From a virus (lineage: Duplodnaviria > Heunggongvirae > Uroviricota > Caudoviricetes): DNA of 38,243 bases. Below are positions 2,234 through 29,707 of this stretch, in pieces. The notes under the pieces were generated by a model that saw nothing but the letters and a program-made list of their open reading frames with translations, searched no databases and had not been told where the DNA came from. The stretch covers positions 1 to 38,243 of the IMG/VR virus record IMGVR_UViG_2721755660_000008; one strand, 5' to 3'. The stretch's first letter is position 1. Every line of letters begins with the position of its first letter. Both the position numbers and the translations under genes were made by a program.

Positions 2234-3163
2234 TCAGTAGTTATGTACTGAAGGAGGTAATTCTTTATTCTTAAGTCTCATCCATGCGGAAAGATTCGCT
2301 GGTCCGTCTGGCTCATTAATATCAACATCTCGTGTGTGGTTTATTAAAACGTCTCTCGCCATTCCGATAACATACGAGAATTCATTACCGTAGTCGTAGC
2401 ATCTGCCGGAATAGTTCGATTGAATTTGTTTTAATGCCGGATACAGTTCGCGGAATAATGCCTGTGAGCGGTTGGCATAATCCCATAGCCATACAAGGCT
2501 GTTTGCTTCTTTTGCAGAAAGCTCGTCGGTTTTCTTCTCTTGTTTGCCGATGAACTCGCCTTCAAGTGGAACTCGAGCTGCAAGTGACAGTGCTTCGGCA
2601 AACTGCTCCTCACTGATTTCTTTGTATGAACACCCAAAATGAGATTTCAGTGACGACCACATGGTGATCATCGCCTTAGCCTGTTTTTCCTTTGGCAGAG
2701 ACTGACCGCGACTCATGACGAGTTGTTTAATGGCTTCCTGCTGTTCAGTGGTGATTTTACCCGGCAACGCCTTTTTAGCTTTGCGTGGGTTAACTACATG
2801 GCCTTTAGTCCAGTACTCGTATAGCACATCGTCACACTCTTCCTGATACTGGATTACCTTGTCGCGGATTTCAGGGCGGACTTTGTTTGGACTGATGGTT
2901 TGCAGCCAGCCAGCAAGTTTGCGAAGTGCCAAACAAATAATCTCACGGCACTGTTCATCACCAGGAAGCTGCATTGTGATTTTCACAATGGAGGTTTTAA
3001 ACCGTTGCTTTATTTTCGTAAACTGTGAAGCCCAATCCATACCCATACCTTCAACGATAGGTTTCATTGGGGTGTACGGCTCACCGTTGTGATTGACGAC
3101 ATAAAGCTCTGCGCCGTGGAATGGCACGTTGATAGTAGATACTGCTGTTGCTATACTTTTCAT
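2234..3163 (-). CDS. ant: Putative antirepressor (Ant-like)
   Basis: 309-aa ORF immediately downstream of an Arc-like RHH gene in the same orientation (P22 immI arrangement arc-ant-gene 9); N-terminal region resembles phage antirepressor N-domains; GAGGAA RBS. Confidence 0.5.
   Translation of the reverse strand: MKSIATAVSTINVPFHGAELYVVNHNGEPYTPMKPIVEGMGMDWASQFTKIKQRFKTSIVKITMQLPGDEQCREIICLALRKLAGWLQTISPNKVRPEIRDKVIQYQEECDDVLYEYWTKGHVVNPRKAKKALPGKITTEQQEAIKQLVMSRGQSLPKEKQAKAMITMWSSLKSHFGCSYKEISEEQFAEALSLAARVPLEGEFIGKQEKKTDELSAKEANSLVWLWDYANRSQALFRELYPALKQIQSNYSGRCYDYGNEFSYVIGMARDVLINHTRDVDINEPDGPANLSAWMRLKNKELPPSVHNY
3129..3157 (+). promoter_or_regulatory. Putative Psar-like promoter inside the 5' end of ant, firing antisense to ant
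   Basis: TTGATA-17 bp-TATACT on plus strand; predicted start about 3163-3165, directly opposite ant start codon and RBS. Confidence 0.45.
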
Positions 3164-3228
3164 GTCAGTTTTTCCTCAAAATTTACTGGCGATTTAAGCC
3201 CGGGCTACTCGCAATAGCTTGGGCTTTA
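3164..3228 (+). ncRNA. Putative Sar-like antisense RNA complementary to the ant translation initiation region
   Basis: Transcript from promoter at 3129-3157 would cover the ant RBS (3164-3180) and end at hairpin AAGCCCGGGCUA...UAGCUUGGGCUUU (3196-3227) followed by U-rich stretch; about 65 nt, like P22 sar. Confidence 0.35.
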
Positions 3229-3229
3229 C

Positions 3230-3376
3230 TCATTCTGGACAAACAATTCCATCCTTAGCTACTGACTCCTTTAGTCTCCTCAATACCTCATTACTGAACG
3301 ACCGATCATCCTTTTTCGCGGACTGCTCCAAAGCCTTTTCCAGCCATTCTGGCATCCTTAATGTCTTAACTTTCAT
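3230..3376 (-). CDS. arc: Arc-like ribbon-helix-helix repressor (48 aa)
   Basis: Hand-translated ORF absent from the 60-aa ORF track: MKVKTLRMPEWLEKALEQSAKKDDRSFSNEVLRRLKESVAKDGIVCPE; beta-strand KTLRMP plus two helices as in P22 Arc; AAGGAG RBS 6 nt upstream of ATG. Confidence 0.65.
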   Translation of the reverse strand: MKVKTLRMPEWLEKALEQSAKKDDRSFSNEVLRRLKESVAKDGIVCPE

Positions 3377-3387
3377 TTTTGCTCCTT

Positions 3388-3435
3388 TGTATGCGGTACG
3401 CATACATAGTATTTAGGTACGCATTGATAGTCAAT
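3388..3435. promoter_or_regulatory. immI-like operator/promoter region: 19-bp palindrome TGTATGCG-gta-CGCATACA (3388-3406), palindrome ATTGA-tag-TCAAT (3423-3435), direct repeat GGTACGCAT x2
   Basis: Perfect inverted repeats in the 104-bp arc/mnt divergent intergenic region. Confidence 0.5.
3406..3434 (-). promoter_or_regulatory. Putative Pant promoter for arc-ant
   Basis: Minus strand TTGACT-17 bp-TACTAT; predicted start falls inside the 19-bp palindrome. Confidence 0.5.
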
Positions 3436-3480
3436 AGATACCTACATATCCTGTGGTAAAAAATTATTCAGGATGCGCCG

Positions 3481-3732
3481 ATGTCTGATCGTAAGTACAA
3501 AAACCCTCAAGTGAATCTGAGGCTTCCTGTAGAGATAAAGGAACGTCTTATTGAACTGGCTGAGGCTAATTCTCGTTCATTAAATGCTGAGATGGTCGCA
3601 GCACTTGAAGCATGGACCGAAAAAAACAAACACATTCAAGCACTAGATCTTGCAACTATAGCATCGCGACTGATAGAGCTTGAGCATGATGTTGAGAAGT
3701 TAAAATGTATGCATGGCAATGGTGAAAAATGA
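3481..3732 (+). CDS. mnt: Mnt-like ribbon-helix-helix repressor (83 aa)
   Basis: N-terminus KNPQVNLRLPVEIKERLIELAEANSRSLNAEMVAALE is an Arc/Mnt-type RHH; same length as P22 Mnt; divergent from arc as in P22 immI. Confidence 0.6.
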   Translation: MSDRKYKNPQVNLRLPVEIKERLIELAEANSRSLNAEMVAALEAWTEKNKHIQALDLATIASRLIELEHDVEKLKCMHGNGEK

Positions 3733-4046
3733 AACGTATCGCTATCCTATTGCTCCTGTGTCTCTCGAGCATAGCTAACGCAGAAACAAAATCAGACGAT
3801 AGCAGTTTTGATGAAATACAAGGCCTCATGATAGCTTCTAAAATGGCTGGTATGTGTGGTGCAATCAAACAAATGGCAATATTCCAAGAATCTACAAACA
3901 TGCCAGGTGGGAATGAATTCTTACAGAGATTCCTTACTACAGAGCAAGCAAGGCTCGGGATGACTCCGCAGCAATTTCTTGAAGCATGTCAGAAATCAAT
4001 CTCTATTTATACCACCTATTACAATATGAGCTCTGAGAAAAAATAG
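3729..4046 (+). CDS. Small secreted (periplasmic) protein of unknown function, 105 aa
   Basis: Start overlaps mnt stop (ATGA); Sec-type signal peptide MKRIAILLLLCLSSIANA; AT-rich codons with several ATA. Confidence 0.6.
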   Translation: MKRIAILLLLCLSSIANAETKSDDSSFDEIQGLMIASKMAGMCGAIKQMAIFQESTNMPGGNEFLQRFLTTEQARLGMTPQQFLEACQKSISIYTTYYNMSSEKK

Positions 4047-4323
4047 ACTAGGATTTCAACGGCTTCCGCGTCCCTGAGTAATTCTGTTGCGGATTTGCTT
4101 CTTGCGGTGGTTTAAGCTGGAGAGCTTGGCTTCTGCTTCTGATATTTGCGCATCTAGATCTTTAAGCTCAAGATCTGAAAGTCGCTGGTCAAGCAGGAAG
4201 TCACTCCCTGTTACCGTTAGAACTCACAACATAAGCAATGTTGAATCCATAGCTAATATCGTTTTCCTGGCTGGCTCAGAACGTTTCGCAAACCTATTAT
4301 CAAGATTCCTGTTACATCCTCTA

Positions 4324-4581
4324 TTATGGGGCTTTGCCACCCCAGCCGCCGACCATGCCAGATTGAGAGAGTACGGGAAATGCCTCGATAACGATCTTGA
4401 TCGCTTCGTTGAGACGTTCAATATCGACATCGGAACCCATATTAGGTGGGCATCCCTGATAGCAGACTCGACCATTTTGGATGCTAACAAGGCTCTTGAG
4501 CATGGCATAATTAATTCCATAAAAACTGCAAGGCTGGTATCCAATCAGGCAAACTGGTGGGTTGTTTGATGGGTAAATCAT
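4324..4581 (-). CDS. Hypothetical Cys-containing protein, 85 aa
   Basis: AAGGAG RBS 5 nt upstream of ATG, directly after a terminator; no AGA/AGG/ATA codons, unlike the overlapping plus-strand ORF. Confidence 0.45.
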   Translation of the reverse strand: MIYPSNNPPVCLIGYQPCSFYGINYAMLKSLVSIQNGRVCYQGCPPNMGSDVDIERLNEAIKIVIEAFPVLSQSGMVGGWGGKAP

Positions 4582-4594
4582 GATTACTCCTTAT

Positions 4595-4625
4595 AAAAAA
4601 CCCACCTGACGGTGGGTTTCATTTC
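4595..4625. terminator. Bidirectional intrinsic terminator
   Basis: AAAAAA-CCCACC-tgac-GGTGGG-TTTCATTTC; flanked by A-run and T-run. Confidence 0.6.
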
Positions 4626-5045
4626 TTAATCTTGCTTCGTAGAAGGTATAAGAGATGCATTTGCCTCTTTTGGCTTCAATGTATACATCCCACCATTAAA
4701 TGGATCAACAGCAAGCCAACCGATTAACCCACCAAACACAAGGTTTCCACCAATATACCAACCATTAGCATTGGCTTTGATTGGCAGGGTAACTGGTTCG
4801 TACCCATCCTTTTCCATAGTGATCTGGTAGCTCTTTTTGCCAAAATAACTACCATCTGACTTGGCAAGAGTTACTCCTTGTGGAGTCTTGCCTTGCGCAA
4901 CAATCACGCCTGATTCATCTTTTACCTTAAAGCTCGCACCGGAAGGGTTGCTGTTCACTTGCACAAGTTGCGTTTCATCACCAACAATAGTTGCGCACCC
5001 AGATAACATGATAGCGCCAGCAACGACGCTAATAATCCTCTTCAT
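4626..5045 (-). CDS. Lipoprotein of unknown function (possible superinfection exclusion moron)
   Basis: ORF 4626..5057; signal peptide with lipobox LSGC (MKRIISVVAGAIMLSGC); start placed at second Met (5045); located between gp16-like gene and immI region where P22 carries sieA. Confidence 0.65.
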   Translation of the reverse strand: MKRIISVVAGAIMLSGCATIVGDETQLVQVNSNPSGASFKVKDESGVIVAQGKTPQGVTLAKSDGSYFGKKSYQITMEKDGYEPVTLPIKANANGWYIGGNLVFGGLIGWLAVDPFNGGMYTLKPKEANASLIPSTKQD

Positions 5046-5140: not shown

Positions 5141-7309
5141 TTACTCCTGTGTCATTCCGCTTAGCGATGCCACAATCCCAGCCCTCGACAAACGCTGGAA
5201 CTCTTCGTTTCCTAGTGCATCGCGAATTGCTTTTACGGCGGCCTTATTTGCCATAAATCTGCGTTCCGCCGCCGCTAATGCGCCATCACTTGCCCCAACT
5301 TTAACTGCCTTTGTCGCCTCTTGAACAGCCTTTTCAATAGCGTAACGACCACTTCTGGTTGCGGATAATTTCGCTATCGATCCTTTTGCTATTGCATCAA
5401 TTGCTCCACCTGCAGCGCCACCCACTATTGCTCCAATAACACCTCCTCCAGAGAACCCTGCGATAGCGCCAGCGGTTGGAAAAGCGCCAGACAATACGCT
5501 CTCTAAAACTGGATGAAGGCCATTCTCAAGAGTGCTAATGGCTGGCATAGAGCGCCCTGTTTGTTCAACATATCGAAGTGGCTTTGTTGCTGCTCTTGCA
5601 AGTTCTCCAAACCCCCTAGCAATCCTACCAAGCTCTGGAGAATATCGACTAATTGCCTTCACGTTTTGTGGGGTAAGAATAGTCGCGATATGCTTAATTC
5701 CAGCCTCTTCAGACTTACCTCCTCGTACCCCTTGCGATACCGCATCTTGTAATATTGATGCAATTGCTGGCGCGCGTTCCGACTCAGGTAGGGCGCTTAT
5801 TATTTTATGGAACTGACCTGTTCCACTTTTTGCTGAACCCTGCAACGCCTTAGAGCCATTAGTTACCAACTGATCAGTTGCAAGGTCTCTACCAAACGCT
5901 GCTTCAGCCTGTTCTTGTGCTGTAAATCTTGCTTTTGATAGATCATTAGCTTTTTGCCAGTCATCAAGAAAACCGCCATTTTGAGCCATTATGCGCATAT
6001 CTTCCGTTGCTGCATCACGAAGCTCAGCCATGCGCCTTGCCGTATTTGCCTCACCAGACCTTATATACTTCTGCTCTGCGTCAGCAAGTTTACTTCGCCA
6101 TGCCTTCATGGCATCAAACGTGATTCCTTTTTTACCAGTTTTAGCATAAGCAGATGCGAATTGTTTCATCTCAGGAGTTAGCGGCATGCCAGCCAAAATA
6201 TCACCCTGAATTGTAGCGTTCAGGTTTGACATTCTGGCCTTTGCGTCAGGCATCGTGGAGCGGACGCTATCCCATGCGGCCTTTTCTGAATTTTTCATTT
6301 TATCAATACTTGCCAAAACCCTTTGTTTTATGGCTGCACTTTTTTCTGATGCAGTTCCTGCTTCAGCCCCAAACTCATCCAATGCTGAGTTAAATTTCGA
6401 CTCTATTTCACTGAATGCTTTGGTGTGTGCATCCTGTGTAATTCCGGGCTTTGACGCCAGAATCCCCTCCGCCTGAGCAAGACCACGACTACCTGATCTC
6501 ATGCCAGGAGTTAATGCGTTGATATCTATTCCAGCAGTATCTGCTGCTTTTGCTATTTCGTCTGACACATTAGCTGACTGTCTGGCAATAATCTCTCTTC
6601 CTGTACCAGACTTTGCCATTTTCGAAACATCAGCAGCGGAATTTATTGCCCCGCCACCAAGAACTTGAGGTGATTTAGAGGTTAAGATCCTTCCAGCCCC
6701 AGAAAGTATCCCCTGAGCACCAATATTGATACCACCGTTAATGGCAGCATTTTGTGCAAAGTCGCCCTCCTGATTTGCAGCATCAGCAAGAGAACCGGCA
6801 ATCATGTTTCCTGCGGAACCGATGTCTCCTGCTAGCTTTGCTGGCGCTCCAGCAGCTTTTGCTGCTGTGCCAATTGGCAGGAGATACCCACCAATTGTTT
6901 CACCGGCTTGCGCGTAAGGGTCTGTCGGTCGCTCGACAGGGCGATAAACATCATCCAAAACCTTGGGGCCGCCAAGCCCCTGGCTGATTGCATTAATCAG
7001 ACTTGCGCCACCCTGCAATACGTCAAATGGTATGTTTACCAGACCACGACCAGCCTGTTCTGCAATTTGCCCTGCACTTTGACCACCAGTGAGCCAATCG
7101 CCAGCTTGTTGCATCAATGATGGTTCTTCTTTCTGCTGCTGAGGTGGAGGGTATGCTGCATAAAACTGATCTCTTGCTTCAGCCCATTTGTCACCAGCCT
7201 TAGGGGCAACAACCTCATCAAAATATTGCGCTTGAGCCTGTGCTTTCTGTTCTTCAGTTAACGCCTGATACTGTGGAGAAGCGATAACATCTTTCCATGC
7301 TTTAGCCAT
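5141..7309 (-). CDS. DNA ejection/injection protein (P22 gp16-like), 722 aa
   Basis: Position after gp20 homologue; Gly/Ala-rich large protein; start overlaps gp20 stop (TAATG). Confidence 0.8.
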
Positions 7310-28921: not shown

Positions 28922-28992
28922 AAGATAACTCAAGTTATAAAAAATAGCAATAACCTTTGTTATTTTACTTTGGATAACCGTAGTTATAGATT
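28922..28992. promoter_or_regulatory. OR region: three 14-bp operators of form ATAAC-N4-GTTAT (28925-28938, 28950-28963, 28974-28987) with putative PR (minus, TTGCTA-17-TATCTT) and PRM (plus, leaderless cI)
   Basis: Three inverted repeats spaced 24-25 bp between the divergent cro and cI starts. Confidence 0.55.
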
Positions 28993-28999
28993 TGTGGGT

Positions 29000-29707
29000 A
29001 TGAAAACATTCGCAGAAAGACTAAATGCAGCCATGAGCTCAGCAGGGGTATCACAATCACAGCTTGCTGACATGGTTGGAATATCTCAGCCAGCCATACA
29101 GAAGATGTCGTCCGGTAAAACAAACGGATCTCGCAAGATGGTTGAATTAGCCAATGCTTTAAAAGTGCGCCCTGAATGGCTTAGTTCTGGTATTGGTGAA
29201 ATGAGGGATGGTGCACATGAAGAACCATCCAATGTCCGTGAGTCATCTTTAAAAGCTGTGGTATGGGAAGACATTAAAAGAAACGATGACGAGTTTGTTG
29301 CGTTGCCTCTTCTTAACGTTTCGCTTTCAGCTGGAAGCGGTAGCTGCGAGCTAGAGGAATCATCGGAGTTCTCTTTGGTTTTCAGAAAGCACTATCTGAA
29401 AAAGATGGGAGTATCTGAAAGATCAGCCAAGCTAGTTAGGGTTGTAGGGCAAAGCATGGAACCAACGCTTCACGATGGCGATGTTGTTGGTGTTAACACG
29501 CAAGATACCACCATCAGAGATGGTAAAACCTACGCTATTTGCCAGTCTGATTTGTTACGAGTAAAAACATTAATCGCCACCCCTACATCGGTGATAATCA
29601 GATCAATAAATCGCGAAGAGTACCCGGATGAAGTAATGGATAGAGATGAATTTCATGAAACCGTAAGGATTATTGGCAGAGTATTCTGGTCGTCTCATAG
29701 TTGGTAA
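29000..29707 (+). CDS. cI: CI-type prophage repressor (HTH plus LexA-like S24 peptidase domain)
   Basis: ORF 28970..29707 (TTG) trimmed to ATG at 29000; HTH SQSQLADMVGISQPAIQKM; C-terminal VVGQSMEPTLHDGD catalytic Ser motif. Confidence 0.85.
   Translation: MKTFAERLNAAMSSAGVSQSQLADMVGISQPAIQKMSSGKTNGSRKMVELANALKVRPEWLSSGIGEMRDGAHEEPSNVRESSLKAVVWEDIKRNDDEFVALPLLNVSLSAGSGSCELEESSEFSLVFRKHYLKKMGVSERSAKLVRVVGQSMEPTLHDGDVVGVNTQDTTIRDGKTYAICQSDLLRVKTLIATPTSVIIRSINREEYPDEVMDRDEFHETVRIIGRVFWSSHSW

Follow-up and report, generated by a model that had tools for sequence, protein, structure and literature searches.

The closest described relative of the locus treated here is the immI region of phage P22 (BK000583), in which mnt, the promoters Pmnt and Pant with the operators Oarc and Omnt, arc, sar and ant succeed one another, flanked by gene 16 and the tailspike gene. 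Two ribbon-helix-helix (RHH) repressors are encoded there, a short one of Arc type and a longer one of Mnt type with a C-terminal helix; Omnt (annotated at 14822-14844) lies over the start of the strong promoter Pant, and Oarc (14798-14818) lies in the Pant spacer, affecting both promoters. Here we analyze the spacer (3380-3480) between divergent genes for an Arc-like and an Mnt-like protein in a virus of the Caudoviricetes (IMG/VR record IMGVR_UViG_2721755660_000008, positions 1 to 38,243); "the window" refers to this whole stretch of 38,243 nucleotides. The window shares with P22 the gene order and orientation, the site between gene 16 and the tailspike gene, the pairing of a short Arc-type with a longer Mnt-type repressor bearing a predicted C-terminal helix, a strong Pant whose start is covered by a dyad, and a conserved sequence in the Pant spacer; conserved dyads stand at positions equivalent to those of Omnt and Oarc. 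We are highly confident that the spacer is the cis-regulatory core of the immI (antirepressor) switch of a P22-like Escherichia coli prophage, and the region around it is a complete P22-type immI or "ant moron" module. Judged from sequence, the control region evidently represents a distinct and widespread specificity class of the known P22 immI switch, with a promoter layout of its own and with sites phased at 21 bp.

The feature is real, and the original prediction correctly recognized its kind from the sequence as an immI-type control region, an assignment that would not surprise a specialist: both flanking genes match the Pfam family Arc, Ant is 57% identical to its P22 counterpart, a putative homolog of sar is present, and the module has the gene-16/tailspike location. 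The accompanying claim that the operators differ from those of P22 also held: no sequence like Oarc (ATGATAGAAGCACTCTACTAT) or Omnt (GGTCCACGGTGGACC; TCCAC.GTGGA) occurs in the window, in phage CUS-3 (CP000711) or in the related locus L034, and each repressor of the window has a DNA-contact strand different from that of its P22 counterpart. The differences extend to the layout. The 29-bp windows of the two P22 promoters lie on opposite strands and overlap (14793-14821 vs. 14826-14798), with starts ~37 bp apart, whereas in the window the promoters stand back-to-back with starts ~60 bp apart; the dyad over the Pant start is 8-1-8 in P22 and 8-3-8 in the window (conserved as 5/6-N-5/6); and, unlike in P22, a 21-bp phased repeat joins the sites of the window. 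The locus thus appears to have neither the immI specificity class nor the promoter architecture of P22.

The elements of the spacer are as follows.

3388-3406, no strand: dyad 1, TGTATGCG-gta-CGCATACA (whole: TGTATGCGgtaCGCATACA), a perfect 8-3-8 palindrome with a single occurrence in the window
3395-3415 and 3416-3436, plus strand: two 21-bp direct-repeat units headed by GGTACGCAT, 76% identical to each other
3406-3434, minus strand: Pant-like promoter from the promoter scan, -35 TTGACT (3434..3429), 17-nt spacer, -10 TACTAT (3411..3406)
3410-3448, no strand: central dyad, an inverted repeat centered at ~3429, with TAGGTA (3414-3419) and TACCTA (3439-3444) around ATTGAtagTCAAT
3424-3452, plus strand: Pmnt-like promoter from the promoter scan, -35 TTGATA (3424-3429), 17-nt spacer, -10 TATCCT (3447-3452)
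3448-3474, plus strand: inverted repeat ATCCTG...CAGGAT, from the Pmnt -10 to the mnt Shine-Dalgarno sequence, found in single-sequence folds

Conservation among relatives carries the case that this arrangement is functional. Protein searches with both repressors yielded 170 loci, in 165 of which the core was recognizable, in 46 unique versions. Related loci occur in E. coli, Arsenophonus, Phlomobacter, Xenorhabdus, Photorhabdus and Chimaeribacter; within E. coli, the class is present in 158 of 5,426 complete genomes, including UTI89-type and O104:H4 strains, and the Prokaryotic Genome Annotation Pipeline (PGAP) labels both small genes Arc family in genomes of this species. The 65-bp core (3388-3452) is 77-97% identical to that of the window, compared with 62-81% for mnt (first 150 nt) in loci that are not of the window's lineage and 99% in CUS-3, 60-90% for the nucleotides of arc, and, for the mnt leader, 33-68% in diverged loci and 89-93% in L076 and CUS-3. 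That a non-coding core is better conserved across genera than its flanking genes implies strong selection on the core. The family consensus is tttGTAtgtGGTAcGCATACATAgTAtttaGGTACGcATTGaTAGTCAATAgaTAcctAC.TA..cT, and conservation extends beyond the promoter hexamers to GGTAyGCATACA on the downstream side of the Pant -10, to GGTACG in the Pant spacer, and to the TAGGTA/TACCTA arms.

Taken in the single sequence, the features are less compelling. Simulated 104-nt spacers of the same composition contain a perfect palindrome with arms of at least 8 with p ~0.019, and an exact 9-mer direct repeat with p ~0.035; over the whole window, 6 such palindromes were observed vs. 4.9 expected. The single-sequence significance of both features is therefore only moderate. 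The lag-21 self-match of 3388-3452 is stronger (57%; p<0.0004 corrected over 30 lags). Against a chance origin of the features, we regard the cross-genus conservation of the core as the decisive evidence. MetJ, omega of pSM19035 and CopG are small RHH dimers that read phased short repeats, direct or inverted, along a promoter at 7-9-bp spacing, compared with the 21-bp lag of the window, and the homology shown is limited to the RHH fold; a heptad array of the omega/MetJ kind was rejected, given a lag-7 self-similarity of 0.29 (p = 0.30) vs. the significant lag of 21.

The original prediction had taken 3377-3480 as a 104-bp divergent arc/mnt spacer; the divergent gap exists, but 3377-3379 is the Arc-like start codon, and the true spacer begins at 3380. 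The minus-strand promoter TTGACT-17-TACTAT was recovered at its predicted place by both a script and the promoter scan, and the proposed divergence of the promoters is borne out by family-wide conservation that falls exactly on the hexamer positions that matter. For Pant, AGTCAA is invariant and the -10 is TA(C/A)TAT; for Pmnt, TTG(A/C)TA and TAnnnT are kept, with change at the remaining positions (of the 46 unique cores, at least 42 have T3447, at least 41 have A3448 and all have T3452), and the -10 is TACTAT in several relatives. Pant and Pmnt mirror each other about 3429, back-to-back with abutting -35 hexamers that have only base 3429 in common, and the predicted starts lie at ~3399 on the minus strand (Pant) and ~3459 on the plus strand (Pmnt), ~60 bp apart. 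An overlapping Pmnt of the P22 kind, with its -10 (GATAGT) at 3426-3431, is disfavored: A3427C, found in 10 unique cores, removes the -11 A of such a promoter, a change that is tolerable in a -35 hexamer, which it still suits, but not in a -10, and these 10 cores have a strong TACTAT at 3447-3452.

The symmetric elements required more qualification. The perfect 8-3-8 palindrome that had been reported is present at 3388-3406, but its perfection is a minority allele, with C3394 in only 5 of the 46 unique cores and T in most. The conserved form is TGTAT(G)-N-(C)ATACA, in which conservation is confined to the outer 5-6 bp of either arm: complementarity is found in 39-46 of the 46 unique cores for the outer five pairs (TGTAT/ATACA), and in 32, 5 and 30 for the inner three. 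As proposed, the palindrome covers the predicted Pant start (~3399), but it also abuts the -10, with 1 bp in common. The second palindrome, ATTGA-tag-TCAAT, is likewise present, as ATTGAtagTCAAT at 3423-3435; however, it is fully explained as two abutting -35 hexamers, since it arises where the mirrored hexamers meet at 3429. Around it lies the larger central dyad, with 18-nt arms (3410-3427 and 3431-3448) that are complementary at 14 of 18 positions (78%); its TAGGTA-N19-TACCTA places one arm within each promoter spacer, and 30-46 of the 46 unique cores keep the symmetry at offsets 2-6 and 10-15 from the center. The 9-bp direct repeat at 21-bp spacing stood as claimed: GGTACGCAT occurs at 3395 and 3416, and these are its sole two copies in 38 kb. 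The heads of the repeat units are conserved across the family as GGTAyGCAT and GGTACGyAT. A third unit at 3437-3457 is weaker in the window (~50% like the first two), and GGTACGCAC forms a third in-phase copy in some relatives. We propose that the 21-bp phasing ties dyad 1 to the central dyad, which would place the sites on one face of the helix.

The control region of the window recurs in CUS-3 and UTI89-type prophages (92.8% identity over 372 bp), as does its Mnt-like gene, there as the first mnt, and CUS-3 can be assigned on this basis to the same specificity class as the window. It differs in having a majority TGTATGTG arm instead of the perfect palindrome, a diverged and unannotated Arc-like gene (58% amino acid identity to that of the window), an additional Cys-rich open reading frame (ORF) that separates arc from ant, and a further mnt gene, of P22 type. 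The Arc-like ORF lies in the CUS-3 "bsq2 boundary sequence" (L001 ~3889-4031, minus strand) and encodes 46 amino acids (MKVKTLRMPEKLEKIL) with the same N-terminus as the protein of the window; the Cys-rich ORF of 67 amino acids lies at L001 ~3689-3892 (minus strand). The ant moron has been described as hypervariable, with CUS-3 and HS-1 apparently lacking arc (Villafane et al., 2008; PMC2629481); the ORF described here would correct the published inference of arc-less ant morons of the CUS-3 type. Loci L034 and L042 represent a different specificity class, in which the N-termini of the arc and mnt proteins are MKVRDIAPLGIRIP and MKGARDISPLGIRIP, respectively, and both share the strand PLGIRIP. 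In these loci a motif, CTACACCGTG, occurs at the Pant start, 21 bp away in the Pant spacer, and on the Pmnt side, a layout that appears to support the site arrangement as a design feature.

The top match of the Mnt-like protein among solved structures is P22 Mnt (1mnt; E 4.5e-5), to which it is 42% identical over the RHH domain; a single-sequence AlphaFold2 model (predicted local distance difference test, pLDDT, 77; predicted template modeling score, pTM, 0.33) has a separate C-terminal helix at 57-78, and the C-terminus is amphipathic with a 3-4 hydrophobic repeat (L57, I60, L64, L67, V71, L74, M77), which is compatible with an Mnt-like oligomerization helix. The Arc-like protein is 32% identical to P22 Arc. 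The contact residues are R2, H6, N8 and R10 in Mnt, and Q9, N11 and R13 in Arc; specificity in Arc and Mnt reportedly follows N-terminal residues, and Arc reads TAGA boxes. The recognition strand of the Arc-like protein is VKTLRMP (V/T/R residues), and that of the Mnt-like protein, PQVNLRLP, has Arc-type Q-N-R residues and is the same strand as in the crystallized Arc variant F10V (1baz). Relatives have the same N-terminal RHH domain with quite different C-termini of 79-132 amino acids; the PQVNLRLP domain and the same core occur with unrelated, longer C-termini (94-132 amino acids) in L118, L121, L125, L127, L130-L133, L136 and L138-L140. The recurrence of one RHH domain and core with varied C-termini indicates that the DNA-binding module and the putative operators travel together and that the oligomerization or effector part is exchanged.

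We infer promoter activity, start points and the pairing of proteins with sites, and arrive at the following scheme. Pant would drive the Arc-like gene and then ant, and Pmnt would drive the Mnt-like gene and the downstream ORF of 105 amino acids; the targets of the repressors would be the dyad at the Pant start (TGTATG-N7-CATACA, 3388-3406) and the central dyad at the shared -35 region. In the lysogen, the Mnt-like protein bound to the 3388-3406 dyad would keep arc and ant silent, leaving Pmnt free and on. After infection, the Arc-like protein made from Pant would occupy the central dyad and shut both promoters, thereby limiting Ant, and the sar-like antisense RNA would add post-transcriptional control of ant translation. 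The assignment of the Mnt-like protein to the Pant-start dyad and of the Arc-like protein to the central dyad, by positional equivalence to Omnt and Oarc, has in our estimate a probability of about 0.5.

Several observations weigh against this scheme. GGTACGCAT is common to dyad 1 and the Pant spacer, which suggests that one protein may read both. In the clade L068-L072 and in L075, dyad 1 is without its left arm, which is rearranged, though the proteins of these loci are similar. Protein-DNA covariation across the 165 loci gave no site assignment, and no natural swaps were found: every Mnt-like partner keeps PQVNLR(L/M)P, and the Arc-like strands KVKTLRMP, PSSVRFP and PVSVRMP go with an essentially unchanged core. 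The inverted repeat at 3448-3474 casts some doubt on the mnt start point; an RNA hairpin formed by it would require transcription of mnt to begin upstream of 3448. Single-sequence folds pair the Pmnt -10 and Shine-Dalgarno regions in many relatives that differ in sequence, although RNAalifold on 15 diverse leaders found no consensus structure for an mnt-leader hairpin. A literature search found no binding, transcription or other experimental work on this specificity class. Finally, the possession of Arc's Q-N-R residues by the Mnt-like protein could mean that it binds the TAG-rich central element.

This last point is the starting point for the opposite pairing, in which the Arc-like protein would autoregulate arc-ant from the Pant-start dyad, and the Mnt-like protein on the central dyad would repress Pant and autoregulate Pmnt negatively. 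The sole TAGA and most of the TAG triplets of the spacer lie in the central element (3427-3438), in keeping with the P22 Arc contacts in PQVNLRLP, but an inverted TAGA...TCTA pair like that of Oarc is absent from the spacer, and in P22 the near-perfect palindrome at the start of Pant belongs to the maintenance repressor. Also in favor of the opposite pairing, locus L006, which has only the Mnt-like gene, retains TACGCATTGATAGTCAATAGATACCTAC and has lost everything to the left of it; however, this breakpoint is one case, and the promoter would in any event require the segment that was retained. We regard the opposite pairing as possible, though doubtful.

The periodicity invites another reading, in which both repressors would read the same 21-bp-phased sites (~3397, 3418 and 3439) and differ only in affinity, oligomeric state and timing, in place of two types of operator. 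The lag-21 signal spans the whole core, GGTACGCAT stands at both the Pant start and the Pant spacer with GGTACGCAC as the third in-phase copy in some relatives, and in L034 and L042 the Arc-like and Mnt-like proteins share PLGIRIP and a single motif occupies all three positions. The recognition strands of the window differ, however (VKTLRMP vs. QVNLRLP), and its third unit is only ~50% like the first two, and we consider a common set of sites quite unlikely.

That the palindromes are not operators at all, ATTGAtagTCAAT being merely two -35 hexamers and the 8-3-8 palindrome an RNA hairpin, a terminator or a product of chance, has in its favor that the hexamers suffice for ATTGAtagTCAAT, that 3388-3406 is reported by the scan as a terminator-like element of the plus strand, that C/T variation at 3394 and 3399 is G.U-compatible in plus-strand RNA, and that the palindrome has p ~0.02 in a single sequence with about the expected count in the window, but it is very improbable, given that the core is conserved above its neighboring genes across genera and the spacers between the hexamers are conserved too, that no plus-strand gene ends at the palindrome and its T-run is poor, that a predicted Pant start inside the palindrome leaves the minus-strand RNA without one arm, and that inner non-pairing variants are common (13 of 46 unique cores at 3393/3401 and 9 of 46 at 3394/3400) with no compensatory double changes in the 46, for which reason dyad 1 was rejected as an RNA hairpin or terminator.

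The control region belongs to a module with the following further components.

2234-3163, minus strand: ant (antirepressor), 309 amino acids; Pfam P22_AR_N 7e-45 and P22_AR_C 7e-29; match to P22 Ant with E 2e-120
3129-3157, plus strand: Psar-like promoter within ant, at its 5' end; TTGATA-17-TATACT, the second hexamer preceded by TG; promoter scan, 10/12 matches
3164-3230, plus strand: sar-like antisense RNA with two hairpins in the arc-ant gap (66 bp); Rfam RF00262 match
3230-3379, minus strand: Arc-like RHH repressor gene, 48 amino acids, N-terminus MKVKTLRMPEWLE; Pfam Arc 1.6e-5, above the family cut-off
3481-3732, plus strand: Mnt-like RHH repressor gene, 83 amino acids, N-terminus MSDRKYKNPQVNLRLP; Pfam Arc 3e-10
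3729-4046, plus strand: ORF of 105 amino acids whose N-terminus, MKRIAILLLLCLSSIANA, resembles a signal peptide; it overlaps the stop codon of mnt (ATGA)

The Arc-like gene (ATG at 3379, stop at 3230-3232) is the first gene of the ant operon, immediately upstream of ant, and an AAGGAG Shine-Dalgarno sequence at 3386..3381 serves its ATG. A longer ORF from an in-frame ATG at 3403, inside the palindrome, was rejected: CUS-3-type relatives do not have this ATG, and the AAGGAG fits 3379. The Psar-like promoter occupies the same place relative to ant and sar as Psar of P22. The RF00262 match is full length (1-68) and scores 31.3 bits (E 3.4e-4), short of the gathering score, which is 43, and the arc-ant gap folds into two hairpins (z = -2.95). 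The ORF of 105 amino acids, for which a Pfam search gave no match, parallels orf59a/sieA of P22 in position and is probably co-transcribed with mnt and expressed from the prophage. The module sits between a gene-16 homolog (5141-7309; P22 gp16 2e-63 for the N-terminal part; 76% identity to the CUS-3 DNA transfer protein) and a tailspike homolog that carries the P22 Head_binding domain (5.8e-65). The window also encodes an integrase and, at 28970-29707, a repressor with helix-turn-helix and S24-peptidase domains (LexA-type), which is a plausible target of Ant.

Other RHH-associated palindromes and repeats were encountered in the course of the analysis. A further perfect 8-3-8 palindrome, CATTGTGAtttTCACAATG, lies at 2972-2990 inside the ant coding sequence and resembles TTGTGATATCACAA repeats upstream of RHH genes in the Proteus loci L011 and L012. 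In L010, a metagenome-assembled genome of Armatimonadia, three copies of GGACCACCGTGGTCC, similar to the P22 Omnt core, occur at ~1400-1500 between divergent genes, upstream of an RHH gene starting MSRDDPQFKLRLP; by sequence they appear to be a P22-Mnt-like operator outside Proteobacteria.

Tandem arrays of two to three Mnt-type RHH genes with different recognition strands occur in 14 of 80 viral loci, including L001 (CUS-3; 4135-4664), L034 (1244-2036) and L042 (1244-1752), as well as L030, L033, L037 and L081. Their strands comprise NPQVNLRLP, DPHFNFRMP (the P22 type), IAPYSVRMP, IAPFGLRMP and ISPLGIRIP. No cognate operator was found near the extra copies: CUS-3 has no P22 Omnt, and L034 has no TGTATG-N7-CATACA. 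The occurrence of the Mnt-like protein as an operator-less second gene in such arrays suggests that it may act in trans, and the extra copies may be directed against the antirepressors of heteroimmune phages. A more far-reaching proposal is that the switch follows a logic other than that of P22, its three 21-bp-phased sites being a single composite operator array that two RHH repressors with different recognition strands read together, and that, in addition, the tandem arrays, in which Mnt-type genes of different specificities are collected, provide modular trans-immunity silencing the antirepressors of superinfecting or co-resident heteroimmune P22-like phages; we put it forward as speculative and rather unlikely.

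Antirepressor modules decide whether another phage induces a resident prophage. Through this control of prophage induction, specificity classes such as the one described here would define a second layer of phage immunity and of cross-talk between prophages. The class is common in E. coli and in insect and nematode symbionts, with a control region that is more conserved than its genes. It also provides a natural second example of Arc/Mnt-type RHH proteins evolving new DNA specificities, in which a protein with the architecture of Mnt and the contact residues of Arc faces entirely different DNA.

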